From: Acidimicrobiales bacterium
GTDB lineage: Bacteria > Actinomycetota > Acidimicrobiia > Acidimicrobiales > VFJN01
Direction of reading: 5' to 3'
NCBI GenBank assembly: GCA_035697145.1
Contig: DASSDL010000224.1
Coordinates: 4,484-68,483, forward strand
Length of the DNA: 64,000 nt
Made by a program: the position numbers and the translations under genes
In this document: one piece after another, positions 27,480 through 42,964 of the stretch
Numbering within the stretch: position 1 is the stretch's first letter
Layout of the letters: the number at the start of each line of letters is the position of its first letter
Notes under the pieces: model-generated
What the model was told of the DNA's origin: nothing
The model's input: the letters and a program-made list of their open reading frames with translations, nothing else
Databases searched by the model: none

Positions 27480-28874
27480 ATGCCGTTTCACCCGACGACG
27501 GAGGAGTGGGACGCCGACCTGACCGCCGGCGACCCCCTCGGCTTCCCCGGGTACGACGAGCAGCGGCGCGCCCTGGCCGCCTCCGGCGAGTCGATGCGGA
27601 CCGGGCGTACGGACCACTACGCCTTCGTCGAGGGTCGGTTCGAGGTGCTGGGCGGCACGATGGGGGCGGCGGCCGGCGAGAAGGTGGTACGGGCGTACGA
27701 CCGCGCCCGCGACCTGCGCCTACCGATGGTGGTGCTGACGCGAACCGGTGGCGCCCGCCTGCAGGAGGGCATGGTGGCACTGGTCCAATTGGCCCGGACC
27801 GCGGCGGCGGCCCGCCGGCATGGCCAGGCGGGGCTGCTGTCGCTGGCGGTGTACGGGTCGCCCACGACCGGGGGCGTGCTGGCCTCGTATGCGTCGCTGG
27901 TCGACCTTCGGGCCGTGGTCGAGGGCGCGGTGATCGGGTTCGCCGGCCCCCGGGTCGCCGAGGGCACGCTGGGCGTCCCGTTGCCGCCGGGGTCGCACAC
28001 GGCCGAGTCGGTCTACGAGCATGGCTTGGCGGATGCCCGTCTCGGCGCCGATGAGGTCGCCGCCTGGGTGGAGGCGGCGCTGGGGCTCACCGACCGCCCC
28101 CTGCCGATCCGGTCGCTCCCGGCCTGGGACGCTCCCGCCGTCCGGAGCGGCGCCACGACCGGCTCCGATGCCTGGATGGAGGTGCTGCGCTCCCGCGCCG
28201 TCGGCCGGCCGTCCGGCATCGACCGGGCAGCGCGGCTGTGCTCGTCGTGGGTCGAGCTGCGGGGCACCGATCCCACCGTGCGGGCCGGGCTGGCGCGGGT
28301 GGCCGGCCGCCGCTGTGTGGTGGTGGCGACCGACCGCTATTGCGCCGCCGGGCGGCCGACGCCGGCGGGGTTCCGCCTCGCCCAGCGGGCGGTGGGGTTG
28401 GCGGGACGCCTCGGGCTGCCGGTGGTGACGCTGGTCGACACCCCCGGCGCCGACCCCTCTCCGGCGGCCGAGGTCGACGGCGTGGCCTCCGAGATCGCCC
28501 AGACGCTGGCGGCGCTGGCATCGTGTCCGACCCCGACGGTGTCGGTCTGCGTGGGGGAAGGGGGAAGCGGCGGTGCGCTGGCCCTGAGCTACACGGACCG
28601 GCTGCTGATGTGCGAGCACGCCACCTTCTCGGTGATCGCTCCCGAGGGCGCGGCGGCGATCCTCGAGCGCGACGCGACAAAGGCGGCCGACGTCGCCGAG
28701 CGCCTACGGCTCACCTCGGGCGACATGCTCGAGCTCGGGGTGGTCGACGAGGTGATAGGCGAGGACCAGGACGCGGTCGACGAGGCCGTGGCCCGGGCGC
28801 TCGAGGGGGCCAAGCGGGGCGAGCGCAATCGGCGGTGGGACGCGGTGACCGCACGCTGGCTGCGCCACGCCTGA
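27480..28874 (+). CDS. acetyl-CoA carboxylase carboxyltransferase, fused beta (AccD-like) + alpha (AccA-like)
   Basis: ATG 27480 inside the ORF that opens at 27063. FEVLGGTMGAAAGEKV..LPMVVLTRTGGARLQEG (beta part) and LPVVTLVDTPGADP...CVGEGGSGGALAL...FSVIAPEGAAAIL (alpha part). Confidence 0.8.
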   Translation: MPFHPTTEEWDADLTAGDPLGFPGYDEQRRALAASGESMRTGRTDHYAFVEGRFEVLGGTMGAAAGEKVVRAYDRARDLRLPMVVLTRTGGARLQEGMVALVQLARTAAAARRHGQAGLLSLAVYGSPTTGGVLASYASLVDLRAVVEGAVIGFAGPRVAEGTLGVPLPPGSHTAESVYEHGLADARLGADEVAAWVEAALGLTDRPLPIRSLPAWDAPAVRSGATTGSDAWMEVLRSRAVGRPSGIDRAARLCSSWVELRGTDPTVRAGLARVAGRRCVVVATDRYCAAGRPTPAGFRLAQRAVGLAGRLGLPVVTLVDTPGADPSPAAEVDGVASEIAQTLAALASCPTPTVSVCVGEGGSGGALALSYTDRLLMCEHATFSVIAPEGAAAILERDATKAADVAERLRLTSGDMLELGVVDEVIGEDQDAVDEAVARALEGAKRGERNRRWDAVTARWLRHA

Positions 28875-29003
28875 CGACGCCGACCGCCCGCGTACGGGCG
28901 AGTACTTCGAGTCATTGCTGCGACACGGTGGGCATCGCCACCGGCTGCGGTTGCCGGACGACGGGGTACGCCTTCACCGACGAGAACCGCGGGCAGCGCA
29001 CCC

Positions 29004-29777
29004 TCAACCGACCGGGTCGGGCAGTACCAGCTCCTGGCCGGGCACCAGCAGGTCGGGATTGCCGGGGTCGAGCAGGCGGCTGCGGTTGGCTTCGACGAGG
29101 CGCCGCCAGTAGCCGGTCACGTGGCGATCGCTCGGCGCGTCCCCGGCTGGAGCCACAGTCTCGGCCGCAATCGACCAGAAGGAGTCACCGGCCCCGACCG
29201 TCCACGAGGTCAAAGGAGCGGGGGCGGGAGCGGGGGCCCGCCCGGGTGCCGGTCGGGCCGGTGGTGACTCCTCGGCGGGGAGGTGGGTCATGACGGCGGT
29301 GGGTGTGTCCTGGGCGCTGCGGGTCATGGTCGCCGTCGCCGGTCCGGGGCTCTGCACGTGCTCGACGGGCAAGGCGGCGGCGGGCGTCGGGGCCAGGGCG
29401 GAAGTCGCCACGGTGGCCGATGGGAGGGCGCCGAGTAGGGTCCCTGCCGCTAGGCCGAGGCTTCCACCGCCGCCGGCGATGCGGCGGACGACGGCCGGTG
29501 TCGCCCGGGCCGCGGCCGCCGCCACACGCGGGCGTCCGAACGGGCGGCTGAGTGCCAATGCGAGCGTGCAGGCGGCGAGGTACCAACCGGTGGCGAGCGC
29601 CGCCAGCCGCAGGAATGCAACCGCCATGACCTCGGGAGGCGTGCGGTCCAGCCAAACGGAGAGATCGTCGTCCGAGGTGAGCGGTACGCCGAGCGTTCCG
29701 GCGCCGACGGCGTGCAGTGCGCGGAGCCCGAGGGCGAGGGCTGCCACCCATGCGAGGAGACGCCAGCGCCCGGTCAC
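29004..29777 (-). CDS. membrane protein with C-terminal LysM peptidoglycan-binding domain
   Basis: GTG 29777 forms GTGA with the stop of the upstream pseudokinase. Two or three hydrophobic segments, a Pro/Ala linker, then WTVGAGDSFWSIAAE...LLVPGQELVLP (LysM). Confidence 0.7.
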   Translation of the reverse strand: MTGRWRLLAWVAALALGLRALHAVGAGTLGVPLTSDDDLSVWLDRTPPEVMAVAFLRLAALATGWYLAACTLALALSRPFGRPRVAAAAARATPAVVRRIAGGGGSLGLAAGTLLGALPSATVATSALAPTPAAALPVEHVQSPGPATATMTRSAQDTPTAVMTHLPAEESPPARPAPGRAPAPAPAPLTSWTVGAGDSFWSIAAETVAPAGDAPSDRHVTGYWRRLVEANRSRLLDPGNPDLLVPGQELVLPDPVG

Positions 29778-31123
29778 CGCCGAGCCTCGATTGTCGCGGA
29801 TGCGCCCGACCCGAGATCGATCACCAGGTCGTCGCAGCCGTCGTCGGCCGGCTTGCCCCGGATTCCCACTGCGCCAGGCACGCGGTCGCGCGCCGCGACC
29901 GTCACCGGCTCCGCCTCGGCGGCCCAGCCCGGGAACACGAACACGTCGCCGGTCGCCGGGCGCAGGAGCGCGGGCGCGCCCCGACCGTCGCAGTCCCAGT
30001 CGCCGACGGCGATCAGGTCGCCGGGCCGGCCCAGCGTCCAGCGGACGGGACCGGCAGAGATGGCGCCGCCCCCGATGACGAGCGCCTCGGGGCAGCCGTC
30101 GCCGTCGACATCGGCGGCCGGGGCGGCCACTGCCGGGCAGTCTGCATACCCGGCCGGCGTGGTCGCCTCGACGGCGTCGGGGCGAGCGGCCGACCCCCGT
30201 GAGCCCCACCCGCCGGCGTACATCACCCCGACGGCGATGGCGGCGACAGCCACTGCGCCGGAACCCGCTGCCATACGGGCATGGGAGCTGCGTTCGGCTC
30301 GCGCCGGGGCTGGCCCGGGGACGACGGCGTCGGCCGGCTCGGGCGGATCGTCGCCGAACGCCTGGGCCCAGCGCTCGTCGTCGGTCAGCTCGTGGGTGAA
30401 GACGAGGTCGAGCAGTTCCTCGTCGGGCGGCACATAGGCGAGCCCCGGGCTGGGCGATGGCCGGCCGCCCGACGGTAGCTCGGCGCCGGGGACGGCGGTG
30501 AGGATCGAGCTCGCCAGCAACCGGGCGTTCGGCCGGCGGCTCGGAACCGGATCGAGCGCCCGGGCTATCACCTGCTCGAGCGCGCGCCGATGGGCCGCGC
30601 TCGATCTCCTGAGCCAGGGCCTCGACCGCCGCCGCTCGGCGGTCGCCCGCTCGAGCACTTCACCCAGCACCCGGCCGAGCGCGGCGACGTCGTCGTGTGG
30701 TTCGGCCCCGCCGGGGTGCGAGAGCCCGCAGAGCCGGGGCCGGCCGTCGTCTCCGACGAGGATGTGCGTGGGGTCGAGGCGCCCATGCACCACACCGATG
30801 TCGTGGAGGTCGGCCAGCGTGGCGGCGACGGCCGCACCGAGGCCGGCGACGCTGGCGACCGCACCGGTCCAGTGCGAGACGGGGTCACCGGCGAACCGGG
30901 TGCGCAGCTCGACGTCGGCCTGGGTGTCGGACCGTGCCGCGTCGACGCTCTCTCCCGGAGCGCGCCCGACCACGAGGACGAGCCCGGGATGGGCAGCGCG
31001 CTCGAGCCGCTCGGCCTCGAGGCGGAGCCGGGCGATGTCGTCGGCGCCAGTTGCGGTCTTGACCGCGATGGGCCCCTCGGTGTCGAGCGCGACGGTCACC
31101 TGCATGCTCATGGGCTGAAGCAT
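29774..31123 (-). CDS. membrane-anchored pseudokinase (degenerate Ser/Thr kinase fold) with extracytoplasmic FG-GAP/VCBS-like repeats
   Basis: PIAVKTA, EAERLERAAHPGLV, then VHGRLDPTHILV in place of HRDxKPxNIL and RLCGLS in place of DFG. TM segment AVAVAAIAVGVMYAG. C-terminal DVDGDGCPEAL / GDWDCDGRGAPALL Ca-loop-like repeats. Confidence 0.65.
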   Translation of the reverse strand: MLQPMSMQVTVALDTEGPIAVKTATGADDIARLRLEAERLERAAHPGLVLVVGRAPGESVDAARSDTQADVELRTRFAGDPVSHWTGAVASVAGLGAAVAATLADLHDIGVVHGRLDPTHILVGDDGRPRLCGLSHPGGAEPHDDVAALGRVLGEVLERATAERRRSRPWLRRSSAAHRRALEQVIARALDPVPSRRPNARLLASSILTAVPGAELPSGGRPSPSPGLAYVPPDEELLDLVFTHELTDDERWAQAFGDDPPEPADAVVPGPAPARAERSSHARMAAGSGAVAVAAIAVGVMYAGGWGSRGSAARPDAVEATTPAGYADCPAVAAPAADVDGDGCPEALVIGGGAISAGPVRWTLGRPGDLIAVGDWDCDGRGAPALLRPATGDVFVFPGWAAEAEPVTVAARDRVPGAVGIRGKPADDGCDDLVIDLGSGASATIEARR

Positions 31124-31162
31124 GCTTAAAATTACTGAGAGTTGTCAAGAAGGCTCAGGGGC

Positions 31163-31585
31163 TCAGGGAGCGGACCGGGCCGTGGCGGTGGCGCTGGCGG
31201 TGACGACGGTGCCGTCGGGGGCACCGGGGACGACGTCGGCGAAGATGTAGTCGGCCTCCAAAGCCAGCTCCACGCGGACGCCGGCACCCGTGACGGTCAC
31301 AACCGGCGGACCCGCCAGTTGGGACGACAGCTCGCTCGCCGCCACGACGTCACCGACCACGGCGCGGGTCCTCGCGGGATCGAGGACGTAGGCATGCGTC
31401 GTTCGCAGCCGGCCCTGGTCGACACCCGCGGTGGCGGCGTCGTTGGCGGCGGCGGCCGCCAGCTCGAACGCCTGGCGCGTTCGCAGGTGGACCAGCGACA
31501 TGTCGACGGCTATCGATGCGAGCACGAGCACGATGAGTAGGCCCGCCGGCATCAGCATGAGGGCACTCCCGCGATCGCGCGCCAT
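31163..31585 (-). CDS. TadG/TadE-like pseudopilin (Flp pilus assembly)
   Basis: MARDRGSALMLMPAGLLIVLVLASIAVDMSLVHL: N-terminus typical of the Tad 'TadE/G-like' family. 140 aa. Confidence 0.6.
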   Translation of the reverse strand: MARDRGSALMLMPAGLLIVLVLASIAVDMSLVHLRTRQAFELAAAAANDAATAGVDQGRLRTTHAYVLDPARTRAVVGDVVAASELSSQLAGPPVVTVTGAGVRVELALEADYIFADVVPGAPDGTVVTASATATARSAP

Positions 31586-31596
31586 CGCCGCGGGTC

Positions 31597-32085
31597 TCAC
31601 GAACAGGCGTCGGCGCTGCCGGGCACGCCGTCGCGATAGGGGTCGATCAATTCGGAGTGGCGGCTGGTCACGTCCAGTCCGGAACCGAACCCGCCGATCC
31701 ACGGCAGGTTCAGCACGGGAACGTCGTAGCTGGCGGTGAACGTGGCCCGGGCGCACCTGGTGAAGCCCGCCTGGCCATCGGGGGACTCGAGGCCGGCCAG
31801 GTCCACGGTCGAACGCGCTTCCTCCCGTCCGTGGGCCGCCAGGGCCTCGTAGCCGGCCCGCCGCGCCTCGGCCTCGGCGTCGCCGAAGTCGCGGGCGCCC
31901 GGCACGTCCGCCTCGACGAAGTGGCGGGCGGCCTGGCGGGCGGCGGCGTCGACGGCCAGCTTGGCGTCGACGACGGCCCAGGCATTGGCGACGAGGAGCG
32001 TTCCGACCACGAACACGAGCAGCCCGAACGGCAGGACCTCGACGCCGCCAACCTGCCCGCGGTCGTCGCCGCGGTGGCTGGTCAC
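31597..32085 (-). CDS. TadE-like pseudopilin
   Basis: GTG 32085 forms GTGA with the corC-like stop. DDRGQVGGVEVLPFGLLVFVVGTLLVANAWAVVD (TadE N-terminal motif). 162 aa, high GC3. Confidence 0.6.
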   Translation of the reverse strand: MTSHRGDDRGQVGGVEVLPFGLLVFVVGTLLVANAWAVVDAKLAVDAAARQAARHFVEADVPGARDFGDAEAEARRAGYEALAAHGREEARSTVDLAGLESPDGQAGFTRCARATFTASYDVPVLNLPWIGGFGSGLDVTSRHSELIDPYRDGVPGSADACS

Positions 32086-33470
32086 CCGGCCGGGGCCGGT
32101 CGCTCGCCCACGGCGGTGGCATCCGGGGGCGTGTCCCGGGGGGACGGCGGGCGAGGTGCTCTGCGAGTGGTCACGGTACCTTCCATACCATTCTGGCGGG
32201 TGATGCGCACCCGGCCGATCCGCCGGCCCTGGATCCGCTGGGCCGTGAGCTGCCAGCCGTCGACGACGACCGACTCGCCTTCGACGGGCACGTGCCCGAG
32301 TTGGTGGTAGAGCAGACCGCCGATGGTGTCCCAGTCGCCTTCGGGCAGCTCGGCGTCGAGCAGCTCGTTGACCTCGTCGAGGGCGGTGCGGGCATCGACG
32401 CGCACGCCGCCGCCGGCCAAGGGCTCGACCAGCGGATCCTCCACGTCGAACTCGTCGACGATCTCGCCCACCAGCTCCTCGATGATGTCCTCGAGCGTGA
32501 CCAGCCCCGCGGTGCCCCCGTACTCGTCCACCACGATCGCCATGTGGAACTTGTCCCGCTGCATCTCCCGCAGCATCTCGGGAACCCGCTTGGTCTCGGG
32601 CACGTAGCGGGCCGCCCGCACCAGCTGAGCGACGGGCAGGTCCTCCTCGCCGTCGCGCTCGGCCCGCATCAGATCCTTGGCGTAGGTGATGCCCACGACG
32701 TCGTCGATGCTGTCACCCACCACCGGCAGCCGGCTGTAGCCGTTGAGCAGGACGACCTCCATCACGTCGGCGACCCGGAAGTCCTGGCCCACGGTCACCA
32801 TGTCGGGACGGGGCACCATGACCTCCCGCACGACCGTGTCTCCGAACTCGATGATCGACTCGATCAGGGCGCGCTCGTGCTCCTCGATCACGCCCTCCTC
32901 GACGCCCAGCTCGGCCACCGCCAGCAGCTCTTCCTCCGACACATAGGGGCCCTGTTTCAGGCCCTTGCCCGGGAGCAGCACGTTGGTCAGTCCGATCAGC
33001 GCGCGGGTGGTGAGGCGGAGCAGCGGGAACCGTGTCAGTGCGCCCACGGGCCGGGCCGCCAACAGTGCGGCGCGGTCGGGGTTGAGGACCGCCCAGGTGC
33101 GGGCCGATGCGGTCACGACGAACACGACGACGATGTCGAGCGCCATGGCGATCGCCACGCCGGCGAGCCCCCACAGGCGCTCGGCGACGATGCCCACCAG
33201 GGTTGCCTGAGCCAGCTGGCAGATGAGCAGGGCGAACAGCAGTGGGTTCACGAACTGGTCTGGCCGGCTGACCAGCTCGAGCAGCCTGCGGGCTCCCCGC
33301 CGGCCCTCGGCGTCCAGGGTCTGGGCCCGCGACTTGGGCATGCGGGAGAGGCCCGTCTCGGCGCCGGCCAGCAGCATGGTCACGACCAGGAGCGCGGCGA
33401 TGGCGACAAGCATCCATCGGTCGCCCACGGAGAGGTTCGCAGCGAGGATCGAGCTCGGCAGTTCCCTCAC
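32082..33470 (-). CDS. hemolysin-family / CNNM (DUF21)-CBS-CorC_HlyC transporter-associated protein
   Basis: GTG 33470 forms GTGA with the ybeY stop. TM DUF21 region (LLAGAETGLSRMP), CBS pair (VREVMVPRPDMV...), CorC_HlyC tail. Confidence 0.9.
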   Translation of the reverse strand: MRELPSSILAANLSVGDRWMLVAIAALLVVTMLLAGAETGLSRMPKSRAQTLDAEGRRGARRLLELVSRPDQFVNPLLFALLICQLAQATLVGIVAERLWGLAGVAIAMALDIVVVFVVTASARTWAVLNPDRAALLAARPVGALTRFPLLRLTTRALIGLTNVLLPGKGLKQGPYVSEEELLAVAELGVEEGVIEEHERALIESIIEFGDTVVREVMVPRPDMVTVGQDFRVADVMEVVLLNGYSRLPVVGDSIDDVVGITYAKDLMRAERDGEEDLPVAQLVRAARYVPETKRVPEMLREMQRDKFHMAIVVDEYGGTAGLVTLEDIIEELVGEIVDEFDVEDPLVEPLAGGGVRVDARTALDEVNELLDAELPEGDWDTIGGLLYHQLGHVPVEGESVVVDGWQLTAQRIQGRRIGRVRITRQNGMEGTVTTRRAPRPPSPRDTPPDATAVGERPAPAG

Positions 33471-33970
33471 CTCCGCTCGTGGAAGCGCTGCAGCAGTTCT
33501 CGTTCGCGGGCCCGCATCAGTGCCGTCTCGCCGACGTCGGCGTGGTCGTGGCCCAACACGTGCAGGACGCCGTGCACGATGAGCAACGCCAGCTCGTCGT
33601 CGTAGGTGGTGGCGTGCTCCGGTGCCTGGCGCTCGGCGACCGCCGGGCACACGACCACGTCGCCCAACAGCAACGGCCCCGGTCCCGGTGTGCTCGTGTC
33701 GGCGTCCGTGGCAGCAGCCTCGACCGGATCGTCGATGGGAAACGCCAGCACGTCCGTCGGCCCGTCGGCGTCCATGAAGCGTCGGTTGAGCCCGCTGATC
33801 GTGTCCTCGTCGACGAACAACAGTGACAGTTCGACGTCGCCGCTGACCCCCTCGGCCAACAGTACGTTCCGTGCGAGATCGACCCAACGCCGGACGTCGA
33901 CAGGCGCCGCCTGCTGCTCGTCGGCGCCGAACACCTTCACCTCGCCCACCTCGCCGTCGGGCGGGGCCAT
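33467..33970 (-). CDS. ybeY: rRNA maturation endoribonuclease YbeY
   Basis: TDVLAFPID... and HGVLHVLGHDH zinc motif. The start ATG shares one nt with the phoH stop. Confidence 0.9.
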   Translation of the reverse strand: MAPPDGEVGEVKVFGADEQQAAPVDVRRWVDLARNVLLAEGVSGDVELSLLFVDEDTISGLNRRFMDADGPTDVLAFPIDDPVEAAATDADTSTPGPGPLLLGDVVVCPAVAERQAPEHATTYDDELALLIVHGVLHVLGHDHADVGETALMRARERELLQRFHERR

Positions 33971-34986
33971 CAGGTGCCGGGCGATGTGCGCCCGTCGGGT
34001 GGTCGAGTCGGCTGGGGTTCGGCGCTGCGATCGATGCCGACAAGGGTGTCGGTTCGTTCGTAGGCGTCGACGATGTCCTGCACGATCCGGTGGCGGACGA
34101 CGTCGTGCGAGGTCAGGTGCACGAACTCGAGCCCGTCGATGCCCTGGAGGGTCTGGGCCAGGTTGGTCATGCCGCTGCGGCCGGTGGGGACGTCGACCTG
34201 GGTCATGTCGGCGGTGACCACGACCCTGGAGCCGAACCCGATGCGGGTCAGGAACATCTTCATCTGTTCGGGCGTGGTGTTCTGGGCTTCGTCGAGGATG
34301 ATGAAGCTGGCGTTGAGCGTCCGGCCCCGCATGAAAGCCAGCGGTGCCACCTCGACCGTGCCCCGGTCGATGAGACGCTGCGCGCCCTCTGGCTCGACCA
34401 TGTCGAAAAGCGCGTCGTACAGCGGTCGCAGGTAGGGATCGATCTTGGCGGCGAGGTCGCCGGGCAGGAAGCCCAGCCGCTCGCCGGCTTCGACCGCCGG
34501 CCGGGTGAGGATGATGCGGTCGACCTCCTTGGCCTGCAGCGCCTGCACCGCCATCGCCACGGCCAGCCACGACTTACCCGTGCCCGCCGGCCCGATGCCG
34601 AACGTGATGACGTTGTCGCGGATGGCGTCGACATAGCGCTTCTGGCCCGCCGACTTGGGGCGCACCGTGCGGCCGCGCGAGGAGCGCAGCACCTCGGCGG
34701 TGAGCACCTCGGACGGCCGCTGGTCGGCGCGCACCATGTCGATGGTGCGCACGACGCTCGCCGGCTCGAGCCGCTGCCCTCGCTCGAGCAGCAGGACGAG
34801 CTCCTCGAACAGGTGACCCACGCGGTCGGCCTCGTCGCCCTCGATGGCGATCTCGTTGCCCCGCACGTGGATCTCGACACCCTCGAAGGCGGACTCGACG
34901 ACGCGCAGCAGCTCGTCGCGCTGGCCGAGGAGGTCGACCATGAGATGGTTGCCGGGAACGGAGATCTTGACCTGCGTGGTCGCCAC
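33970..34986 (-). CDS. phoH: PhoH-family ATPase
   Basis: 338 aa. ITFGIGPAGTGKSWLAVAMAV (Walker A), FIILDEAQNTT. Confidence 0.95.
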   Translation of the reverse strand: MATTQVKISVPGNHLMVDLLGQRDELLRVVESAFEGVEIHVRGNEIAIEGDEADRVGHLFEELVLLLERGQRLEPASVVRTIDMVRADQRPSEVLTAEVLRSSRGRTVRPKSAGQKRYVDAIRDNVITFGIGPAGTGKSWLAVAMAVQALQAKEVDRIILTRPAVEAGERLGFLPGDLAAKIDPYLRPLYDALFDMVEPEGAQRLIDRGTVEVAPLAFMRGRTLNASFIILDEAQNTTPEQMKMFLTRIGFGSRVVVTADMTQVDVPTGRSGMTNLAQTLQGIDGLEFVHLTSHDVVRHRIVQDIVDAYERTDTLVGIDRSAEPQPTRPPDGRTSPGT

Positions 34987-35200
34987 GAGGGGCCCAGCCT
35001 AGTGCCGTGACCACGGACGTTTTCGCCCCGCCACACCGGCCCCGGCTCCGACAAAGACGAGGACCGCCAGGATTCTTGCGGGGTGCTGTCGTGTCATGCA
35101 CTCATCGTTCCCCGGCGAACCTTGCGCGGTAAACGCCTTTGCCGGGGAGGCTCCGCCCGGCCCACTGGTGGGCGCGAGGGTCCACTAGCGTCCCGAGCCC

Positions 35201-35797
35201 GTGGACCGTCCTACGGCTGACGACGCAGGCGGGCCGGCGATCGTCGGCCGCTTGTTCGGCGAGGGTTTGGCCGCTCGGATCGACCGGTGGGCCGCCGACG
35301 CTCGCGTCGACGAGGCGGCCCGGCGTCGCGTCCGCGAGCGCTGGCTGCGGCACCAGGCCGAGGAAGAGGGAAGCCTGGCGGGGGTGCTGGCGGACGTCGC
35401 CGAGCGTGGCGTGCCGGTGGCGGTGCACGTTCGGGGCGGGCGCCGGCACCGGGGCGAGGTCCGGGCGCTGGGCTCCGACTTCGTGGCCCTCCGATCGGCC
35501 GACGCCGACGTGATCGTCGCCCTGGCCGCGGTGACGTCGGTGCGCACGCGTCCCGGCGAGGCATCGACGATCGGCGACCGGTCGATCGCTACCTCGCTCC
35601 GGCTGGTTGACGTGTTGGCCGGCCTGGCGGCCGAAAGGGCGGCGGTGTTGCTCGTGATGGCGGGAGGGGACGACGTCGTCGCCGGCGCGCTCCGGTCGGT
35701 GGGTCAGGACGTCGCGCAGGTGCGACTGGCCGGCGCCCCTGCCGCCACGGCCTATGTCCCGGTGGGCGCCATCGTCGAGGTGCTGCTCGACACGTAG
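35201..35797 (+). CDS. hypothetical protein with internal duplication (two similar ~55-aa beta-rich modules)
   Basis: 198 aa, GTG start. The modules LAGVLADVAERGVPVAVHVRGGRRHRGEVRALGSDFVALR... and LVDVLAGLAAERAAVLLVMAGGDDVVAGALRSVGQDVAQVR... align to each other. No family recognised. Confidence 0.5.
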   Translation: MDRPTADDAGGPAIVGRLFGEGLAARIDRWAADARVDEAARRRVRERWLRHQAEEEGSLAGVLADVAERGVPVAVHVRGGRRHRGEVRALGSDFVALRSADADVIVALAAVTSVRTRPGEASTIGDRSIATSLRLVDVLAGLAAERAAVLLVMAGGDDVVAGALRSVGQDVAQVRLAGAPAATAYVPVGAIVEVLLDT

Positions 35798-36585: not shown

Positions 36586-36837
36586 TCACATGTCGTCGTC
36601 GCTGCCGCGGGTGGCCGGCTCGGGATAGAGGTGCTCTAGCTCGCCCGGCTGGATGCGTGAGCGGCCGATGAAGTCGTCGACTTCGTGTGCCCGGAGCCGA
36701 ATGACCCGGCCGAACCTGTAGGCGGGGAGCTCGCCATGGTCGATGAAGCGGTACAGGGTGCGGGGCGTGATGCCGAGGCGACGCGCCGCTTCTTGAGTCG
36801 AGAGCCACTCGGTCTCGTCGGTGTTCACGGCACACAC
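36586..36837 (-). CDS. excisionase/MerR-type helix-turn-helix DNA-binding protein
   Basis: WLSTQEAARRLGITPRTLYRFIDHGELPAYRFGRVIRLRAHEVDDFI matches the Xis-family HTH pattern (..T..EAA..LG.S..T.YR.I..G.LPA.R.GR...I....L..F.). Divergent from cpaB. Confidence 0.75.
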   Translation of the reverse strand: MCAVNTDETEWLSTQEAARRLGITPRTLYRFIDHGELPAYRFGRVIRLRAHEVDDFIGRSRIQPGELEHLYPEPATRGSDDDM

Positions 36838-36930
36838 CTTACTCCCTCGCGTGGTGTTTTGGCATCTTTCGGTCTAATCCTCACCGGAGCCGAACGAGTC
36901 GGCTAGGGTGTAGTCGCTTCCTCACGCCTA

Positions 36931-37713
36931 GTGAGTGAAGGGGCGATCGGGCTGTGGGGCGCCGGACCGCGCTGGGAGGTGCTCAACGGACGCGATGGTG
37001 ACGCGAGCGGTACGAGCGATGACGCGATGGTCATGACGCGCCCGGGCAACGGTGCCGATGCTCCGGCGCCGAGTGGCGTCGCAGGCCGCGCGATCGACAG
37101 GCGGATGGGTCTGCCCGGCGCCCGCGCCATCCTGGGCGGGCTGCTGGTCGCCGTCGCCGGCGTGTGCACCTTCGTAGCCTGGCAGCACGCGTCGGGTGCC
37201 GCCCGCGAGTCCTATGCGGTGGCGGCCCGGCCGATCCACCCGGGCGAGTCGCTCACCGCCGACGACATCCGTTTCGAGCCCATCGATCTGCCGGCCCACC
37301 TGTCGGCCGCCGCGTTCACCGACGCGTCCGGCATCGAGGGCCGGGTGGCGCTGGGACCGATTGGCGACGGCGAGCTGGTGCAGCTCGGTCAGGTGAGCGA
37401 TCCCGCGCCGGCGAGCCCCGCTGCGGAGCTGTCGTTCTCCATCGCCCGCGATCGTGCGGTCGACGGGCGCCTGCGCAGTGGCGACCTCGTCGACGTGTTC
37501 GTGACCGACGACGGCGGCACCACGGCGGTGGCCGAGGGTGTGCAGATCGTCGACGCCGTGACCCACGACGGCGGGTCCTTCGGCACTACCGGCGAGCTGA
37601 CGATCACCGTGACCATCACAGATCCGGAGTTGCGCGAACCGCTCATCCAAGCGGTGCGCGAGGGAGAGGTCACTCTCGTTCGCAGCACGCACCTGTCCCG
37701 CGAGGGTGGTTGA
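36931..37713 (+). CDS. cpaB: Flp pilus assembly protein CpaB/RcpC (SAF domain)
   Basis: TM segment ILGGLLVAVAGVCTFVAW, then AVAARPIHPGESLTADDIRFEPIDLP (SAF). The start is uncertain: GTG 36931 or an ATG near 37030. Confidence 0.7.
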   Translation: MSEGAIGLWGAGPRWEVLNGRDGDASGTSDDAMVMTRPGNGADAPAPSGVAGRAIDRRMGLPGARAILGGLLVAVAGVCTFVAWQHASGAARESYAVAARPIHPGESLTADDIRFEPIDLPAHLSAAAFTDASGIEGRVALGPIGDGELVQLGQVSDPAPASPAAELSFSIARDRAVDGRLRSGDLVDVFVTDDGGTTAVAEGVQIVDAVTHDGGSFGTTGELTITVTITDPELREPLIQAVREGEVTLVRSTHLSREGG

Positions 37714-39050
37714 TGGCCACCGACCGCTACGTCGTCCTTGGACTCGCCCGGGCGCGCGCGGCGTGGTTCGGGCAGGTGGCGCGCTGGGCGACCGCCGCGG
37801 CACTGCCGGTCGATTTCGTCAAGACGGTGTCGGGCGAGGAGGTGCGGGCCCGCCTGCGCTCGGGCCGCCCGTTCTCGGCGCTGCTGGTCGACGGGGGACT
37901 GGCGGCGCTCGACCGTGACCTGATCGACCTCGCTGGCCGCCACGGTTGCGCGGTCATTGCGGTCGACGACGGGCGGTCGGCCCGGTCGTGGCGCGACCTC
38001 GGCGTGGCGGCGGTGCTTCCCGCCGACGTCGAACGGGGAGTGTTGCTGGACGCCCTCCGCGCGGTGGCGCAACCCATCGCCCGCCGCGACGACTCGGCGG
38101 ACCTTCCCGACCCGGTGGACCCGGCGCCCGCACGCTGGCGGGGTCGGTCGGTGGCCGTGACCGGCTCGGGTGGCGTTGGTCGCTCGACGCTGGCGATGGC
38201 CATTGCCGCGGGGTTGGCGGCCGATCCTCGGGATGCCGGCTTGGTGCTTCTCGCCGACCTGGCGCTCCACGCGCAACAGGCACTGCTGCACGACGCCGGC
38301 GACGTCTTGCCCGGCGTCGCGGAGCTGGCCGATGCTTGCCGGGGCACGGCGCTCGACTCCGCCGAGGTGCGGAGGCTCTGCTTCTCGGTGCCGACCCGCG
38401 GCTACGACCTGCTGCTGGGGCTGCGACGCCACCGGGACTGGACGGCACTGCGGCCCCGGGCCGTGGCGGTCGCCCTCGACGGTGTGCGGCGCGCCTACCG
38501 GGTCGTGGTGAGCGACGTCGACCCTGACGTCGAGGGCGAGGCAGAGTGCGGATCGCTCGACGTAGAGGACCGGAACCTGCTGGCCCGTACGGCCCTCCGG
38601 AACGCCGAGGTAGTCCTGGTGGTTGGCCACCCGGGAATGGCGGCCGTCCATGCGCAGCTGCGGGTCGTGCGCGACCTCGTCGAATTCGGCGTCGCCGGCG
38701 CCCGGATCGTGCCCGTCGTCAACCGGGCGCCCCGCGGCCCGCGGCAGAGAGCCGAGCTCGCGGCCACGCTCGCGGGCACGTTGCTGGCGGCCGCGTGTCC
38801 CGGCGTCACCCTGGCCTCGACCCCGATCTTCGTCCCCGAGCGACGCCGGCTCGACGACCTGGTCAGGGACGGCGCACCCCTGCCGCCACAGATCGTCCGC
38901 CCGGTCACAGGAGCGGTCCGGGCGTTGCTCGACCGAACGCCCGAGCTACCGGCGCCGCCCCGGCCGCCCGAACCCGTGGTGGTGGCGCCCGGATCCCTGG
39001 GTAGCTGGGCCGCCGACGATGGCGAGCCCGACGAGAAGGCTGGGTCGTGA
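37713..39050 (+). CDS. tadZ: TadZ/CpaE (Ssd-like) ParA/MinD-family pilus localisation protein, degenerate P-loop
   Basis: ATG 37713 shares one nt with the cpaB stop. Receiver-like N-domain, then VAVTGSGGVGRSTLAMA in place of the deviant Walker A KGGxGK[ST]. Confidence 0.75.
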   Translation: MATDRYVVLGLARARAAWFGQVARWATAAALPVDFVKTVSGEEVRARLRSGRPFSALLVDGGLAALDRDLIDLAGRHGCAVIAVDDGRSARSWRDLGVAAVLPADVERGVLLDALRAVAQPIARRDDSADLPDPVDPAPARWRGRSVAVTGSGGVGRSTLAMAIAAGLAADPRDAGLVLLADLALHAQQALLHDAGDVLPGVAELADACRGTALDSAEVRRLCFSVPTRGYDLLLGLRRHRDWTALRPRAVAVALDGVRRAYRVVVSDVDPDVEGEAECGSLDVEDRNLLARTALRNAEVVLVVGHPGMAAVHAQLRVVRDLVEFGVAGARIVPVVNRAPRGPRQRAELAATLAGTLLAAACPGVTLASTPIFVPERRRLDDLVRDGAPLPPQIVRPVTGAVRALLDRTPELPAPPRPPEPVVVAPGSLGSWAADDGEPDEKAGS

Positions 39051-40408
39051 CCCCGTCCACGTGGCGGCCCGAACGCCTCGCCGGCGCCACGCCGTCACCG
39101 CTGGTCGAGATCGAGCGCCTCGTCCAGGAGCGGGCCAAGGACGTATCGCTGGAGATGTCGTCCCCGGGGGGAGAAGCCAAGCTCAGGGCGCTCATCGCGG
39201 AGGAGGTGGCGCGCTGGGGCGACGACCACCGACGCGGGCGGCGGCCGTTTGCACTCGCCGATCCCGATCAGGTCGTCGAGCGCGCCTTCCGCAACCTGGC
39301 GCGCTACGGCCCACTCACCCCGCTGCTCGACGACGACGACGTGTGGGAGATCATGGTGAACGATCCCCAGACGGTGTTCGTGCGCCGCCATCGTGGCCAG
39401 TCGGGGTACCACGACGAGGTCTTCCACGACGACGACCACGTGCTGCGGACGCTGACCAAGCTGCTCGACGACGCGTCCAGCGCCCACCGCAAGCTCGATC
39501 CGGCCGACGGCCTCCAGGACGCGCAGCTCGACGACGGCGCGCGGGTCCACATCGTCCACGGGGACGTCGCGCGCGGCGGGCATGTGCTCGTGAACATCCG
39601 GAAGTTCACGGGCATCCCGTTCGCCTCGCTCGACGAGCTGGTCGGGCGGGGCATGCTCACGGCACGGGTGGCGGCGTTCCTACGGGCCTGTGTGCAGGCG
39701 CGGCTCTCGATCGTGTTCGCCGGCCATCCCGGCGCCGGCAAGACGACGCTGCTGTCGTGCACCGCGGCCGAGCTCGACCCGGCGCTGCGGGTGGTGGTGG
39801 CCGAGGAGGTGTTCGAGGCCGACATTCCGCTGCCCAACGTCGCCCACATGCAGACCCGCGCGGCCCGCTCGGACCGCGAGCCGGTCGACCTGCGGCGGTT
39901 GGTGGCGGGATTCCTGCGCATGGCACCCGACGTGGCCATCGTTGGCGAGGTGCGGGACCGCGAGGCGCTGCCCCTGCTCCTGACGCTGTCGTCGGGGGTC
40001 ACCGGGTTCACGACGATCCACGCCGGGTCGGCGCGCCAGGCGCTGACCCGGTTGCGGTTCGTGTGCCAGCTCGCCGACGCGCCAGGCGGGCTGCCGCTGG
40101 CGGCGCTCAACACGCTGGTGAGCGAGAGCATCGACGTGGTCGTGCACTGCACCCGCACGGCCGGCGGGCCGCGGGTGACCGAGCTCGTCATGGTCGAGGA
40201 CCTGCAGGGCGGGCTCGACGCCACGCAGTTCACGGTCACCGAGGTGTTCCGGCGGCCCGGGCCCGACCAGGCGCTGGCGTGGACCGGCAACCTGCCCGTC
40301 CGGGCCGCTCGAGCGTTGGCTGACGCCGGTCATGATGTCCGGCGGCTGCTGGACGATCGTTCCGGCGCCGGTGTCGAGCGCCTCGAGGTTCGGGGGGCGA
40401 TCGTATGA
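39047..40408 (+). CDS. tadA: Tad secretion ATPase CpaF/TadA
   Basis: GTGA overlap with tadZ. FAGHPGAGKTTLL (Walker A), RMAPDVAIVGEVRDREA, TGFTTIHAGSA. Confidence 0.95.
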   Translation: MTPSTWRPERLAGATPSPLVEIERLVQERAKDVSLEMSSPGGEAKLRALIAEEVARWGDDHRRGRRPFALADPDQVVERAFRNLARYGPLTPLLDDDDVWEIMVNDPQTVFVRRHRGQSGYHDEVFHDDDHVLRTLTKLLDDASSAHRKLDPADGLQDAQLDDGARVHIVHGDVARGGHVLVNIRKFTGIPFASLDELVGRGMLTARVAAFLRACVQARLSIVFAGHPGAGKTTLLSCTAAELDPALRVVVAEEVFEADIPLPNVAHMQTRAARSDREPVDLRRLVAGFLRMAPDVAIVGEVRDREALPLLLTLSSGVTGFTTIHAGSARQALTRLRFVCQLADAPGGLPLAALNTLVSESIDVVVHCTRTAGGPRVTELVMVEDLQGGLDATQFTVTEVFRRPGPDQALAWTGNLPVRAARALADAGHDVRRLLDDRSGAGVERLEVRGAIV

Positions 40409-40554
40409 GCGAGCGTCCGTCGAGGGTGACGGGGAAGCACGGTGAGAGCGAGCCGAGGGCCCGAGCGGCCCGCCGCCGTAGGCGGCAAGAGCGGGAGTCG
40501 ACGCGTCGGAGCCCGAGCGGCCCGCTGCGAAGCAGCAAGAGCGGGAAGCGATGA
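40405..40554 (+). repeat. intercistronic ATGA-to-ATGA mini-ORF repeat, copy A (49 codons, internally duplicated)
   Basis: The ATG overlaps the tadA TGA and the TGA overlaps the tadB ATG. Its 5' 14 nt and its 3' 24 nt (plus the terminal ATGA) are identical to the reverse-strand copy at 63905-63985. Confidence 0.8.
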
Positions 40555-41435
40555 CCGGGCTCGTGGTGGCGCTCTGTGCTGCCGTCGGGACCTACTACCT
40601 GTACACGGCGCTGGTGCTCGGCTGGCGGGGACTGCGCCCGGGTCCGCCGGTGGCGCGGCCGGCCCCGAGTCGGCGCGGCGCGTCGGACTGGCTCGCGCAG
40701 GCGGGCGTGGGTGACGTCAGCGTGCGGCAGTTCGTGCTTGTCACCGCGGCGCTGATGGCGTTGGGGGCCCTCGGCGGACTGGCCCTGTTCGGCGCGGCCC
40801 TTCCGGCGTTGGTCCTGGCCCTGTGCGTCGGGGCCGCTCCGTTCGCGTCCTACCGGGTGCGCCGCCAGCAGCTGCGGGCCGCCGCCCAGGAGGCCTGGCC
40901 GCGACTGATCGAGGAGATCCGCATCCGCACCTCGGGCCTGGGCCGGTCGGTGCCCCAGGCCCTGTTCGAGGCGGGTGAACGGGCGCCCGCCAGCCTCCGT
41001 CCGGCGTTCGCAGCGGCGCAGCGGGAATGGGTGCTCTCGACGGACTTCGAGCGCACGGTGGCGGTTCTGAAGGACGGGCTGGCGGATCCCACCGCGGACG
41101 CCGCCTGCGAGACCCTGCTGGTGGCGCACGAGGTGGGCGGCAGCGACCTCGACCGGCGGCTGGAGGCGCTGATCGAGGACCGCGTGATCGACGTCCAGGG
41201 CCGCAAGGACGCGCGTTCGAAGCAGGCCGGCGTGCGCTTCGCACGACGGTTCGTGCTCCTCGTCCCGTTGGGCATGGCGCTGGTGGGCATGTCGGTTGGC
41301 AACGGGCGGGCGGCCTACGCCACACCGTGGGGCCAGACGATGGTCGTCATCGGGATCACCTCGGTGGTGGCGTGCTGGGTGTGGGCGGGGCGGCTGCTCA
41401 GGCTGCCCGAAGAGCAGCGGGTCTTCTTCGAGTAG
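40551..41435 (+). CDS. tadB: Tad platform protein TadB (T2SS F family)
   Basis: 294 aa. N-terminal TM, cytoplasmic helical domain, C-terminal TM pair. Position directly after tadA. Confidence 0.85.
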   Translation: MTGLVVALCAAVGTYYLYTALVLGWRGLRPGPPVARPAPSRRGASDWLAQAGVGDVSVRQFVLVTAALMALGALGGLALFGAALPALVLALCVGAAPFASYRVRRQQLRAAAQEAWPRLIEEIRIRTSGLGRSVPQALFEAGERAPASLRPAFAAAQREWVLSTDFERTVAVLKDGLADPTADAACETLLVAHEVGGSDLDRRLEALIEDRVIDVQGRKDARSKQAGVRFARRFVLLVPLGMALVGMSVGNGRAAYATPWGQTMVVIGITSVVACWVWAGRLLRLPEEQRVFFE

Positions 41436-41454
41436 GCGTGGTCGAGGAGGTGAG

Positions 41455-42369
41455 GTGAACCAGACTCAGCTGTTGGCGACGGGGGCGCTGGCGCTGTTCG
41501 CCGGCACGACGCTGCTGCTGAGCCGGATCCGGTGGTTCCGGCGGCGGCCGCTGGTGGACCGCTTGGCGCCCTATGTTCCCGGTGGGTCGACGGCGCGGAG
41601 TACCAGCGTCCTGCTGTCGGCGGACACCTTCGGGCAGGTGATCGGGCCCGTGGCCCGAGCCGTGGGGGAGCGGGTGGCACGGGCGGTGGGCGTGACCGAG
41701 TCGCTGGCGCTGCGGCTCGAGCGGATCGGATCGACGCTCGACGTCACCGCCTTCCGGGTCCGCCAGCTGGCATGGGCCGCGGTCGGCCTGGTGGCCGGAA
41801 CCGTCGTCGCCGTGGCCACCCAGCAGTCGGGACCGGTGGCACTGCTCCTGATCGTGACCGGGCCGTTGATCGGCTTGCTGGTGGTCGAGCAGCGCCTGGC
41901 CTTGGAATCGCAGGCGTGGCAGCGCCGCATCGTCCTGGAGCTTCCGGTCGTGGCCGAGCAGCTCGGCATGCTGCTGTCGGCCGGCTATTCGTTGGGTGCC
42001 GGGCTCAGCCGGCTGGCCGCCCGCGGCAAGGGCGCGTGCGGCCGGGACCTACAAAGGGTGGTCGGCCGCATCCGCCAAGGGCTGTCGGAGACCGAGGCGT
42101 TGCGGGAATGGGCGACGGTGGCCGACGTCGACGCCCTCCACCGGCTGGTCGGGGTCCTGGCGCTCAACCGCCAGTCAGGCGACCTGGGGCGGTTGATCGG
42201 CGAGGAGGCCCGGGCGATCCGCCGCGACGTCCATCGAGAGCTGATCGAGACCATCGAGCGCCGCGGTCAGCAGGTCTGGATCCCGGTAACCGTCGCCGCG
42301 CTGGTACCAGGTGTCATCTTCCTGGCGGTGCCGTTCATCGACGCCCTCAGCCTGTTCGCCAACTCGTGA
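41455..42369 (+). CDS. tadC: Tad platform protein TadC (T2SS F family)
   Basis: GTG 41455 preceded by GAGGAGG. LPVVAEQLGMLLSAGYSLGAGL motif of the T2SSF domain. Confidence 0.85.
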   Translation: MNQTQLLATGALALFAGTTLLLSRIRWFRRRPLVDRLAPYVPGGSTARSTSVLLSADTFGQVIGPVARAVGERVARAVGVTESLALRLERIGSTLDVTAFRVRQLAWAAVGLVAGTVVAVATQQSGPVALLLIVTGPLIGLLVVEQRLALESQAWQRRIVLELPVVAEQLGMLLSAGYSLGAGLSRLAARGKGACGRDLQRVVGRIRQGLSETEALREWATVADVDALHRLVGVLALNRQSGDLGRLIGEEARAIRRDVHRELIETIERRGQQVWIPVTVAALVPGVIFLAVPFIDALSLFANS

Positions 42370-42380
42370 AGGAGTCAGTC

Positions 42381-42566
42381 ATGTCATTGTCAAGTGCCCA
42401 GGGCACGAGGTTCGGTCGAGACGATCGCGGCGAAGGGGTCATCTCGGCAGCGATCGCCGTGCTGATCATGGCGTTCCTCGGGGCGCTGATGTGGGTCGGG
42501 TTCAAGTCGATGTGGGACACCACCGAGCAGAAGACCAACGACCAGATCGAGCAGATCGGGGGGTGA
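42381..42566 (+). CDS. flp: Flp-type (class III signal peptide) pilin candidate, atypical
   Basis: 61 aa, GAAGGAG 7 nt upstream. MSLSSAQGTRFGRDDRGEG|VISAAIAVLIMAFLGALMWVGF: basic leader + Gly + hydrophobic helix. The position after tadC matches actinobacterial Flp genes, but it lacks the G/xxxxEY Glu-Tyr. Confidence 0.55.
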   Translation: MSLSSAQGTRFGRDDRGEGVISAAIAVLIMAFLGALMWVGFKSMWDTTEQKTNDQIEQIGG

Positions 42567-42964
42567 GGGATGACCGCGGCGTGGGGTTGGTACCCACCGC
42601 CGCCGGGTTCGTGGTGTTCCTCCTGTTCCTGTTGCTGGCGGTGCAGGTGCTCTACGGCCTGTACGCCACGTCCACGGTGCGGGGGGCGCTGAACGACGCC
42701 GCGTCGCGCGCCGCCAACGGACGGAGCACCCAGGTCCAGCTGGAGCGGTTGGCGGACGACGCCGAGCGGTCGTTGGGACCGATGGGTCAACGCACGACGA
42801 TCCGGCTGCGCCTGGTGGACGACGACGCCGACGGGATGCCGGACGTGGTGGCCGGCTCGGCGGTGGCCGACCCGCCCCGGTTCGTGCCGCCACCACTCGG
42901 CGGTGTCGCCGGGCTCGATGACATAGACGTGTCGGTGCGGGTGCGGATCGAACGGTTTCGGTGA
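42563..42964 (+). CDS. TadE-like pseudopilin
   Basis: GTG 42563 forms GTGA with the flp stop. DDRGVGLVPTAAGFVVFLLFLLLAVQVLYGL N-terminus. Confidence 0.6.
   Translation: MRDDRGVGLVPTAAGFVVFLLFLLLAVQVLYGLYATSTVRGALNDAASRAANGRSTQVQLERLADDAERSLGPMGQRTTIRLRLVDDDADGMPDVVAGSAVADPPRFVPPPLGGVAGLDDIDVSVRVRIERFR

Follow-up and report, generated by a model that had tools for sequence, protein, structure and literature searches.

We analyzed four genes which directly follow corC on the minus strand of a 64,000-nt stretch of DNA from an Acidimicrobiales bacterium (contig DASSDL010000224.1), here called the window. The first two, tadE2 and a tadG-like gene, encode putative pseudopilins, the third encodes a membrane pseudokinase and the fourth a membrane protein with a LysM domain. 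Synteny shows that a Tad (type IVc) pilus operon of the Acidimicrobiia type ends with these four genes, and gene order makes a strong case for their membership in this operon. Taken as a whole, the block is likely best explained as the displaced tail of the Tad operon, comprising minor pilins and a pseudokinase-LysM pair of a scaffold or switch type.

The four genes are present where a first-pass annotation of the window, made from the sequence alone, had placed them (Table 1). The corC stop and the tadE2 start share a GTGA (32085-32082), the two pseudopilin genes are separated by 11 nt and the pseudokinase stop shares a second GTGA with the LysM start (29777-29774), so that all junctions named in that annotation can be read from the sequence. 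The main Tad locus, described there as lying about 5 kb away on the opposite strand, is located on the plus strand at a distance of 4.8 kb from tadE2.

To compare gene orders, 23 window proteins were mapped onto 84 related loci by iterated hidden Markov model (HMM) search (jackhmmer) using envelope coordinates. In about 24 of the 84 loci the genes were found on one strand in the order cpaB-tadZ-cpaF-tadB-tadC-flp-tadE1-tadE2-tadG-pseudokinase-LysM, here referred to as the ancestral order (L014, 15, 21, 24, 25, 26, 28, 30, 31, 33, 37, 39, 41, 42, 44, 47, 49, 59, 68, 70, 71, 74 and 82, with L067 as a variant). These loci include members of Iamiaceae, Microthrixaceae and Candidatus Poriferisodalis. 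They are flanked by a divergent phoH-ybeY-corC(-era) on one side and a convergent (accA)-hemW-bldD-rsmE on the other. The co-occurrence of the four genes outside this genome and with tad loci, which the first-pass annotation had proposed as a check, was therefore found as a conserved module; its position directly after flp-tadE and on the same strand in about 24 related genomes also supports the suggested functional affiliation of the accessory genes to the Flp/Tad pilus.

The order seen in the window was found in 15 loci (L001-L012, L018-L020), with corC-tadE2-tadG-pseudokinase-LysM on one strand and cpaB to cpaF on the opposite one. Flipping the segment consisting of tadE1 to cpaB, HTH_17, X198, phoH, ybeY and corC in the ancestral order yields the window order exactly, the breakpoints being located between tadE1 and tadE2 and between corC and era. 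On a maximum-likelihood tree of the pseudokinase the window-order loci form a single clade (SH-aLRT 98; 15 rows and one locus truncated at the gene), nested within a group (support 87) that also contains ancestral-order loci. Loci outside this clade have era after corC, which is the usual arrangement in Actinomycetota. Synteny and tree together show one inversion in the ancestor of the window's clade, which put tadE2 to LysM behind corC and tadE1 before era. In 21 of 27 ancestral-order loci the genes tadE1 and tadE2 share 4 nt, so that the breakpoint fell inside a coupled gene pair. A search for inverted repeats at the two breakpoints gave only GC-rich matches at chance level and no trace of a recombination mechanism.

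The junction with phoH-ybeY-corC, regarded in the first-pass annotation as a weld that would tie expression of the module to a ribosome-maturation operon, is on this comparative evidence a historical accident of one clade and not a designed coupling to ribosome maturation. The proposed tie did not hold, as the junction is a by-product of the inversion and tight linkage to corC is limited to tadE2 and tadG. In locus L002 (7727-9493) and also in L006, L007, L009 and L020, corC and tadE2 were found within one stop-free frame, and gene callers report a 588-aa CorC containing the pseudopilin in these genomes. Either the two genes are truly fused, or the inversion has created an internal restart. 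Additionally, locus L047 (QEUP01000004.1), titled 'Acidobacteria bacterium', has the complete Acidimicrobiia-type synteny and Tad operon; this bin is probably mislabelled or contaminated.

None of the four window proteins reaches a Pfam or NCBIfam cut-off singly. Orthologues were gathered from the 84 loci because single proteins fell under the Pfam cut-offs; the gathering score was used as cut-off for single proteins and orthologue families were scored at E<0.01. The TadE2 protein (P0003) scored 11.5 bits against PF07811 TadE (cut-off 22.9, E=0.33) and the TadG-like protein (P0001) 14.5 bits against PF13400 Tad (cut-off 22.3, E=0.047). At the family level, PF13400 was matched by 14 of 42 P0001 orthologues (best E=3.2e-6), and PF07811 by 15 of the 28 orthologues of tadE1 of the main locus (best 7e-5). 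Because none of the 41 P0003 orthologues gave a Pfam match, the TadE assignment of P0003 was made via profile-profile comparison. Here, hhalign aligned the P0003 family with the tadE1 family (95.4%, E=1.6e-8, 106 columns) and the tadE1 family with the P0001 family (94.4%, E=8.6e-8, 122 columns); the direct profile match between P0003 and P0001 was weak (75%) and covered the C-terminal part only.

In all three families the protein starts with a short charged leader whose last residue is Gly and continues with a single hydrophobic helix, the arrangement of a class III signal peptide, before a small domain at the C-terminus. The consensus leaders are ..ERG/.GL.ST.. (tadE1), ..G-Q-V-G-G-I-E-A-L-P-F.. 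(tadE2) and ..RGS.L.L.PA.. (tadG-like). TadE2, encoded by the second of three pseudopilin genes after flp in ancestral-order loci, has an N-terminal G-x-x-G-G-x-E motif, a hydrophobic helix at residues 15-33 and the invariant cysteines C111 and C161, and it alone keeps the Glu following the leader Gly (E16). In P0001 a DRG/S motif is followed by a hydrophobic helix at residues 9-27. By these profile comparisons tadE1, tadE2 and the tadG-like gene are predicted to be three paralogous minor pilins. The identities given in the first-pass annotation thus hold at the family level (hhalign and the PF13400 matches), but not as single-protein Pfam matches, and 'TadG-like' applies to the N-terminal PF13400-type segment of P0001 only, which is predicted to be a 140-aa pseudopilin and not a large TadG. 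No gene for a prepilin peptidase (TadV/CpaA) was identified in the 64-kb window. The Flp pilin of the main locus is highly conserved across the class, with the pattern ..(D/E)RGEGVISAAIAVLIMAFLGA.., and lacks the Glu-Tyr of the classical G/XXXXEY motif.

Tad/Flp (type IVc) loci are known from other Actinomycetota, such as Rv3654c-Rv3660c of M. tuberculosis and the tad loci of Micrococcus luteus. These share the core tadZ-tadA(cpaF)-tadB-tadC-flp followed by TadE/TadF-type pseudopilins, which the three pseudopilins described here fit, and a secretin is absent both there and here, in keeping with a cell that has a single membrane. In contrast to those loci, the operon analyzed here also contains cpaB (SAF domain), continues with the membrane pseudokinase and the LysM membrane protein, and was split by inversion in the window's clade.

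The pseudokinase (P0004) was divided, based on an alignment of 81 sequences, into a kinase-like N-domain (residues 1-220, 30464-31123), a variable disordered linker, a helix and an ectodomain. Its likely start is the conserved ATG at 31111 (M5; the family start is M-[SD]-M-H-V) and not the one at 31123. The linker carries a conserved cytoplasmic juxtamembrane motif, DTLDRIW..DDERWA..FG, and hydropathy places the single membrane helix at residues 284-302. With P0004 alone, no match to Pfam Pkinase (PF00069) was obtained and Kdo remained below the cut-off (0.014); furthermore, none of 120 P0004 homologues had a precomputed Pfam domain. Sub-threshold NCBIfam hints (MAD6 kinase at 8e-4, SafA and YneA) were dropped as family assignments for the window proteins.

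The family profile of P0004 matched PDB entries of a MAPKK-like kinase (9gmp_A, E=3.3e-8), PAK4/6 (~2e-3) and STRAD-alpha (0.014), and the best 60 of 82 PDB profile matches are conventional eukaryotic-like kinases or pseudokinases (MAPKK-like, PAK4/5/6, STRAD-alpha, RSK and others). In an AlphaFold2 (AF2) model of P0004 (pLDDT 78) the N-domain was confident. A Foldseek search with this model gave more than 1900 PDB kinase-domain matches at E<=1e-3 with target TM of 0.5-0.6, among them PknB of M. tuberculosis (3ori_A, E=1.8e-8). Profile and model together assign a genuine bilobal protein-kinase fold to the N-domain.

The beta3 Lys (K22) and the alphaC Glu (E36) are invariant in the 81 sequences. 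The Gly-rich loop GxGxxG is absent from P0004, and the catalytic loop reads HGR-x-D-xx-H in place of H(R/G)D-x-K-xx-N: VHGRLDPTHILV aligns with HGDLKPSNVLI, with the replacements D->R, K->D and N->H. Additionally, a shortened (L)CG, with a deletion, stands in the place of the DFG motif. As it lacks the G-loop as well as the Asp of HRD and that of DFG, P0004 is a pseudokinase and not a kinase; it is a conserved pseudokinase rather than a decaying gene. The catalytically dead kinase fold noticed in the first-pass annotation is in agreement with these results.

The ectodomain of P0004 (residues 322-449, 29777-30160) comprises about 125 aa with four conserved Cys. Modelled alone it is all-beta (pLDDT 93, pTM 0.86). 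A profile of the ectodomain gave no match among PDB sequences, and Foldseek returned weak, partial beta-propeller matches (best E=0.02), such as the integrin-alpha headpiece, PVL lectin and fucose lectins. Against FG-GAP_3 (PF13517; FG-GAP is PF01839) P0004 remained under the cut-off (E=0.055). The ectodomain profile found 18,215 cluster representatives. Among these, giant proteins repeat its central GDWDCDG...LLRPxTGxVF unit (positions ~45-90) 8-23 times, and two of these giant repeat proteins have strong Pfam matches to FG-GAP and FG-GAP_3. The term 'FG-GAP-like' used in the first-pass annotation is therefore a fair description of what the model and the repeat proteins suggest to be two to three propeller blades, but falls short of demonstrated membership in the FG-GAP family.

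For the fourth protein (P0002), the score against LysM PF01476 was 18.2 bits (cut-off 20.9, E=0.0024), and 25 of 51 orthologues matched this family (best 9.8e-7). The family profile also matched LysM domains in the PDB, with SafA at 2.3e-4, Kbp at 1.3e-3 and TsaP weakly. The LysM membrane protein joined to the pseudokinase by GTGA, as annotated initially, is supported by these family-level results. The domain is C-terminal (residues ~190-255, 29013-29210), with an insertion of about 18 residues between two conserved ends. According to hydropathy it is preceded by two clear N-terminal helices, a weaker third one and a Pro-rich linker; the positively charged loop before the third helix agrees with an extracellular position of this domain. 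Among 51 loci, the end of the pseudokinase gene and the beginning of the LysM gene share 4 nt in 35 cases and 1 nt in 3 (38/51 in total). Because of the 4-nt overlap the two products would be made in coupled amounts, and such an overlap is typical of partners made in fixed proportion.

Association of the pair with Tad genes was examined in 57 informative loci, which have a full-length kinase-like gene and enough flank. A tadG gene was located directly upstream in 28 and the LysM gene directly downstream in 32 of them; both were present in 27, and at least one Tad gene in 40. The pair was also found in rearranged surroundings: in L013 it is convergent with the tad operon, in L052 the LysM gene directly follows tadG with the kinase gene elsewhere, and in L061 (Egibacteraceae) tadG and the LysM gene flank a kinase gene that has kept its place but is inverted.

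On the pseudokinase tree, 12 proteins with the same ectodomain form a sister clade. Ten of these (L035, 36, 53, 54, 56, 61, 73, 75, 78 and 83) keep the Gly-rich loop and the canonical H(R/G)D-x-KPxN and DFG motifs, and L060 and L081 do not. Intermediate motif states occur as well, with HGD combined with LCG in L037 and L050, and HR(D/S/A)I with LCS or LCG in the L027 group. The sister-clade genes lie just upstream of cpaB in L056, L073, L075 and L083; cpaF was observed as well in L056, L073 and L075, and tadE-tadE-tadG was observed only in L073 and L075. The L075 kinase matches Pkinase at 2.5e-45, and a LysM-like domain (hhalign 90%, E=1.7e-6) was recognized in the membrane protein encoded by the next gene. 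Since L083 (active form) and L003 (pseudokinase in window order) belong to one assembly, active and dead forms are paralogues able to coexist, each beside a Tad locus. In L075 (1622-9924) the neighbours of the active paralogue include a 1459-aa FtsK/SpoIIIE ATPase carrying an FHA domain and a WXG100-like protein, the end of which overlaps the start of the kinase gene; these genes are hints of a type VII-like secretion locus next to the second Tad locus.

PknD of M. tuberculosis is a Hanks-type receptor kinase with a beta-propeller sensor domain. The active paralogues (L075 and others) fit this type, which combines a kinase domain, one membrane helix and extracellular beta-rich repeats. It differs from the present family in that the ectodomain here is a partial propeller with four conserved Cys and in that the window copy is dead.

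A low-GC TTGACAACTTTC element precedes the pseudokinase gene and recurs upstream of cpaB. The spacer between tadG and the pseudokinase gene is usually 20-110 nt long, with a G+C content of 0.41-0.55 in most loci having a spacer (0.41-0.76 over all listed; genome 0.72). Its consensus in the window's clade is CTCTTGACAACTTTC-N12-TCAGCAT-N-CTTC-N5-ATG. In the window, a conserved TTGACAACTCTC (31148-31137) contains TTGACA (31148-31143); a CAnnnT hexamer (CATGCT, 31124-31119) is located 18 nt past TTGACA and the conserved ATG 7 nt further. Leaderless mRNA is common in Actinomycetota, and the geometry of the spacer fits a candidate promoter for a leaderless pseudokinase-LysM mRNA, proposed here from conservation only.

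The 12-nt motif T[TC]G[AG]CA-N-[CT]T[CT]TC occurred 21 times in 1.27 Mb of loci, with about 3 occurrences expected by composition as a rough estimate. Sixteen of the 21 lie 24-35 nt before the pseudokinase gene and four lie 126-175 nt before cpaB (L003, L005, L041, L044). This distribution suggests that the pair is co-regulated with the main Tad operon. Because the same motif is found upstream of cpaB, expression of the pair probably follows that of the Tad operon and not that of phoH. As the pair keeps its own candidate element, only tadE2-tadG would depend on the phoH-ybeY-corC transcript.

In the mechanism that we propose, tadE1, tadE2 and tadG would act as minor pilins priming the Flp filament, while the bitopic pseudokinase and the LysM membrane protein would form a pair, probably with its own promoter, in which a motif of the region upstream of cpaB recurs. 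Outside the cell, the LysM domain would hold peptidoglycan. The partial-propeller ectodomain with its four Cys would be extracytoplasmic and disulfide-bonded and would contact the wall or the pilus, and the dead kinase domain, with Lys22 and Glu36 kept, may serve as a cytoplasmic scaffold or conformational switch toward the Tad platform. The pair would descend from an active sensor kinase and a LysM-like protein that stand at the head of a second Tad locus of related genomes. A role of the pair in anchoring to the cell wall or in sensing of surfaces, as the first-pass annotation had considered, is plausible. More specifically, we tentatively suggest, as one possibility among others, that pseudokinase and LysM protein are an unrecognised envelope-spanning Tad accessory complex of single-membrane Actinomycetota: the LysM domain and the ectodomain would anchor the pilus or gate its passage across peptidoglycan, the dead kinase would dock on the Tad platform, and the complex would have arisen by catalytic decay of a pilus-linked sensor kinase which survives as the active paralogue at the second Tad locus.

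The best functional analogy for the pseudokinase is EssB/YukC, the bitopic membrane pseudokinase of type VIIb secretion in Firmicutes (PMC9600267, PMC3526858, PMC12599244). EssB/YukC is a structural scaffold; like P0004, it is bitopic, has a dead cytoplasmic kinase fold and is encoded inside the operon of an envelope-spanning machine. The machine here is Tad and not a type VII secretion system, however, the ectodomain is FG-GAP-like, and the beta3 Lys and the alphaC Glu are kept. For the LysM part, the closest working analogy is TsaP and FimV, LysM proteins of type IVa pilus machines which tie the filament machine to peptidoglycan. TsaP (3jc8) is a weak match to the P0002 family profile, restricted to the LysM domain (E=0.14). 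Unlike P0002, which is polytopic, belongs to a single-membrane cell and is paired with a pseudokinase, TsaP and FimV work with an outer-membrane secretin in double-membrane bacteria.

Several observations weigh against a displaced operon tail whose pseudokinase-LysM pair serves the pilus. No Tad gene was found within ~10 kb of the kinase-like gene in 17 of the 57 loci, and in L029 this gene stands alone between phoH and bldD, exactly at the expected position of the operon. The kinase-like protein may act independently of the pilus, and the adjacency could in part reflect gene order inherited within a single class and not functional selection. The third membrane helix of P0002, needed to place the LysM domain outside the cell, is weak. 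A strict sigma-70 and terminator scan of 28800-35300 found nothing, and the spacer fails it; the cpaB-upstream copy of the motif in the window, TTGGCATCTTTCG, deviates from the motif at two positions and does not reach significance by itself (two matches were also obtained with 25 of 100 shuffles). Furthermore, two soil runs labelled as RNA-Seq gave 1-3x mixed, unstranded-looking coverage of both strands with many 90-95% reads and were uninformative on read-through from corC.

The main rival to a scaffold-type machine part assigns the pseudokinase the role of a regulatory receptor. Ectodomain and LysM protein would detect a signal from wall or surface, and the pseudokinase, as an allosteric partner or phospho-acceptor scaffold of the active paralogue or of a different Hanks kinase, would pass this signal on to Tad expression or motor activity. 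In favor of this role, an active kinase with this ectodomain is the origin of the family, and a single assembly contains both paralogues. The invariant beta3 Lys and alphaC Glu suggest a retained ligand or conformation, the juxtamembrane DTLDRIW..DDERWA could be a docking or phosphorylation site, and STRAD-alpha, found among the profile matches, is itself a precedent. A further precedent is the pseudokinase linked to MviN (MurJ) in M. tuberculosis, ActPs3, which functions with PknB and FhaA as a wall-linked, membrane-associated, phospho-regulated scaffold (PMC12599244). This protein resembles P0004 as an actinobacterial, membrane-associated pseudokinase with a cell-wall link. However, in ActPs3 all three catalytic motifs are degraded and bulky residues fill the ATP pocket (PMC12599244), whereas Lys22 and Glu36 are invariant here and no flippase is fused. 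The motif pattern of P0004, with Lys and Glu kept, differs from the seven pseudokinase families of PMC12599244, with ActPs1-3 compared by description and not by HMM. Neither EssB/YukC nor MviN is named in the best 60 of the 82 PDB profile matches of the P0004 family. The module contains no FHA or phosphatase gene, and the tight coupling to the LysM protein and the position after the pseudopilins look more like those of a machine part. We regard the receptor role as conceivable, yet rather doubtful.

Alternatively, the pair could be a cell-wall homeostasis module with no pilus role, so that its adjacency to Tad is inherited and only tadE2 and tadG are pilus genes. The 17 loci without a Tad gene within ~10 kb (including L029, L027/57/69/76/79 and L077/84) would fit this, LysM domains and Hanks kinases are classic wall-related parts, and the entire hrcA to era region is highly syntenic. 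However, the association is seen twice, with paralogous kinase and LysM-like pairs at two different Tad loci; the adjacency outlasts local rearrangements (L013, L052, L061) and reaches Egibacteraceae, the upstream motif common to pair and cpaB ties the pair to the operon, and among loci lacking Tad the LysM gene is immediately downstream only in L032, L065 and L080. A pure wall module appears unlikely.

Equally improbable is an adaptive corC-tadE2 junction, in which tadE2-tadG, and possibly the pair, would be selected for expression from the phoH-ybeY-corC promoter, coupling minor-pilin supply to growth or ribosome-maturation state: the GTGA overlap of corC and tadE2 in the window, L003 and L005, the shared stop-free frame in the five loci named above and retention of the arrangement across the whole clade are in favor of it, but an inversion that exchanges operon tails should be tolerated wherever read-through is sufficient, with no sign of selection for coupling, corC-tadE2 spacing varies widely inside the clade and the pseudokinase-LysM pair keeps its own upstream element.

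The positions of all features are given in Table 1. The window has a G+C content of ~72%, and the closest relatives of its proteins are all from uncultured Acidimicrobiales. The four-gene block is convergent with an acetyl-CoA carboxyltransferase gene, 5' of which hemW, bldD, rsmE, dnaJ and hrcA are located. Within the main Tad operon the intergenic gap between cpaF and tadB (40405-40554 region) is 142 nt. Two further genes, X198 and HTH_17, were found between phoH and cpaB in many loci of every arrangement type, and they still adjoin the kinase gene where the remaining operon sits elsewhere. The HTH_17 protein is a candidate regulator of the Tad operon. Of the sampled 31-mers of window 29004-33000, 58-94% are present in each of at least 20 metagenome runs on soil, which come from about ten studies; therefore, the organism or very close strains are widespread in soils.

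Table 1. Features of the pseudopilin-pseudokinase-LysM block, the housekeeping operon and the main Tad locus (positions in the window)
Feature	Position	Strand	Basis or remark
LysM membrane protein (P0002), 257 aa	29004..29777	minus	LysM in orthologues, PDB profile, hydropathy
membrane pseudokinase (P0004), 449 aa	29774..31123, likely start 31111	minus	alignments, PDB profile, AF2 model, Foldseek, hydropathy
low-GC spacer, candidate promoter of pseudokinase-LysM transcript	31112..31162	minus	conservation
tadG-like pseudopilin (P0001), 140 aa	31163..31585	minus	PF13400 in orthologues
tadE2 (P0003), 162 aa	31597..32085	minus	profile-profile match to TadE1 family and synteny
corC (CNNM-CBS-CorC_HlyC)	32082..33410	minus	strong Pfam match
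ybeY endoribonuclease	33467..33990, start approximate	minus	Pfam YbeY E=2e-33
phoH	33970..34986	minus	first gene of housekeeping operon; Pfam PhoH E=1.6e-92
X198, 198 aa	35201-35797	plus	no known family
HTH_17	36586-36837	minus	small, excisionase-type
TTGGCATCTTTCG, second copy of pseudokinase-upstream motif	36859..36871	plus	HTH_17-cpaB intergenic, ahead of main Tad operon
proximal half of Tad operon, cpaB to tadE1	36931..42964	plus	Pfam T2SSE for cpaF, ORFs, orthologue maps
cpaB	to 37713	plus	ORFs and orthologue maps
tadZ	37713-39050	plus	ORFs and orthologue maps
cpaF	39047-40408	plus	ORFs and orthologue maps
tadB	40551-41435	plus	ORFs and orthologue maps
tadC	~41452-42369	plus	ORFs and orthologue maps
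flp	42381-42566	plus	ORFs and orthologue maps
tadE1	42563-42964	plus	ORFs and orthologue maps
era	starts 43011		directly after tadE1

Neither the pseudokinase review (PMC12599244) nor the bacterial kinase atlas preprint mentions pili, Tad or LysM. A description of a Tad-linked kinase, pseudokinase or LysM protein was not found in the literature searched, which was incomplete, so that this is absence of evidence only. The statement of the first-pass annotation that the module is not one recognised as described is consistent with this, the combination being absent from the review, the preprint and the lists of papers retrieved in the Tad literature searches. The Tad system and its pseudopilins are known; apparently undescribed is the (pseudo)kinase-LysM pair as a recurrent component of Tad loci, of which we did not find an account.

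To our knowledge, it is not understood how Tad/Flp pili cross and attach to a thick single-membrane wall, as the well-studied systems all use an outer-membrane secretin. Two concrete candidate parts for this passage or attachment lie at the operon end, namely a conserved, predicted wall-binding protein and the membrane pseudokinase to which it is coupled. Additionally, the pseudokinase adds a bacterial family which keeps the ATP-site Lys and Glu with both catalytic Asp lost, and its active and inactive paralogues side by side are a natural experiment on the change from kinase to scaffold. The locus is furthermore a clear case of one inversion exchanging the tails of two operons, even fusing the frames of corC and tadE2 in some genomes, and it warns against inferring function from the operon context of a single genome. 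Across the class Acidimicrobiia, it is the Tad genes that the pseudokinase-LysM pair accompanies.

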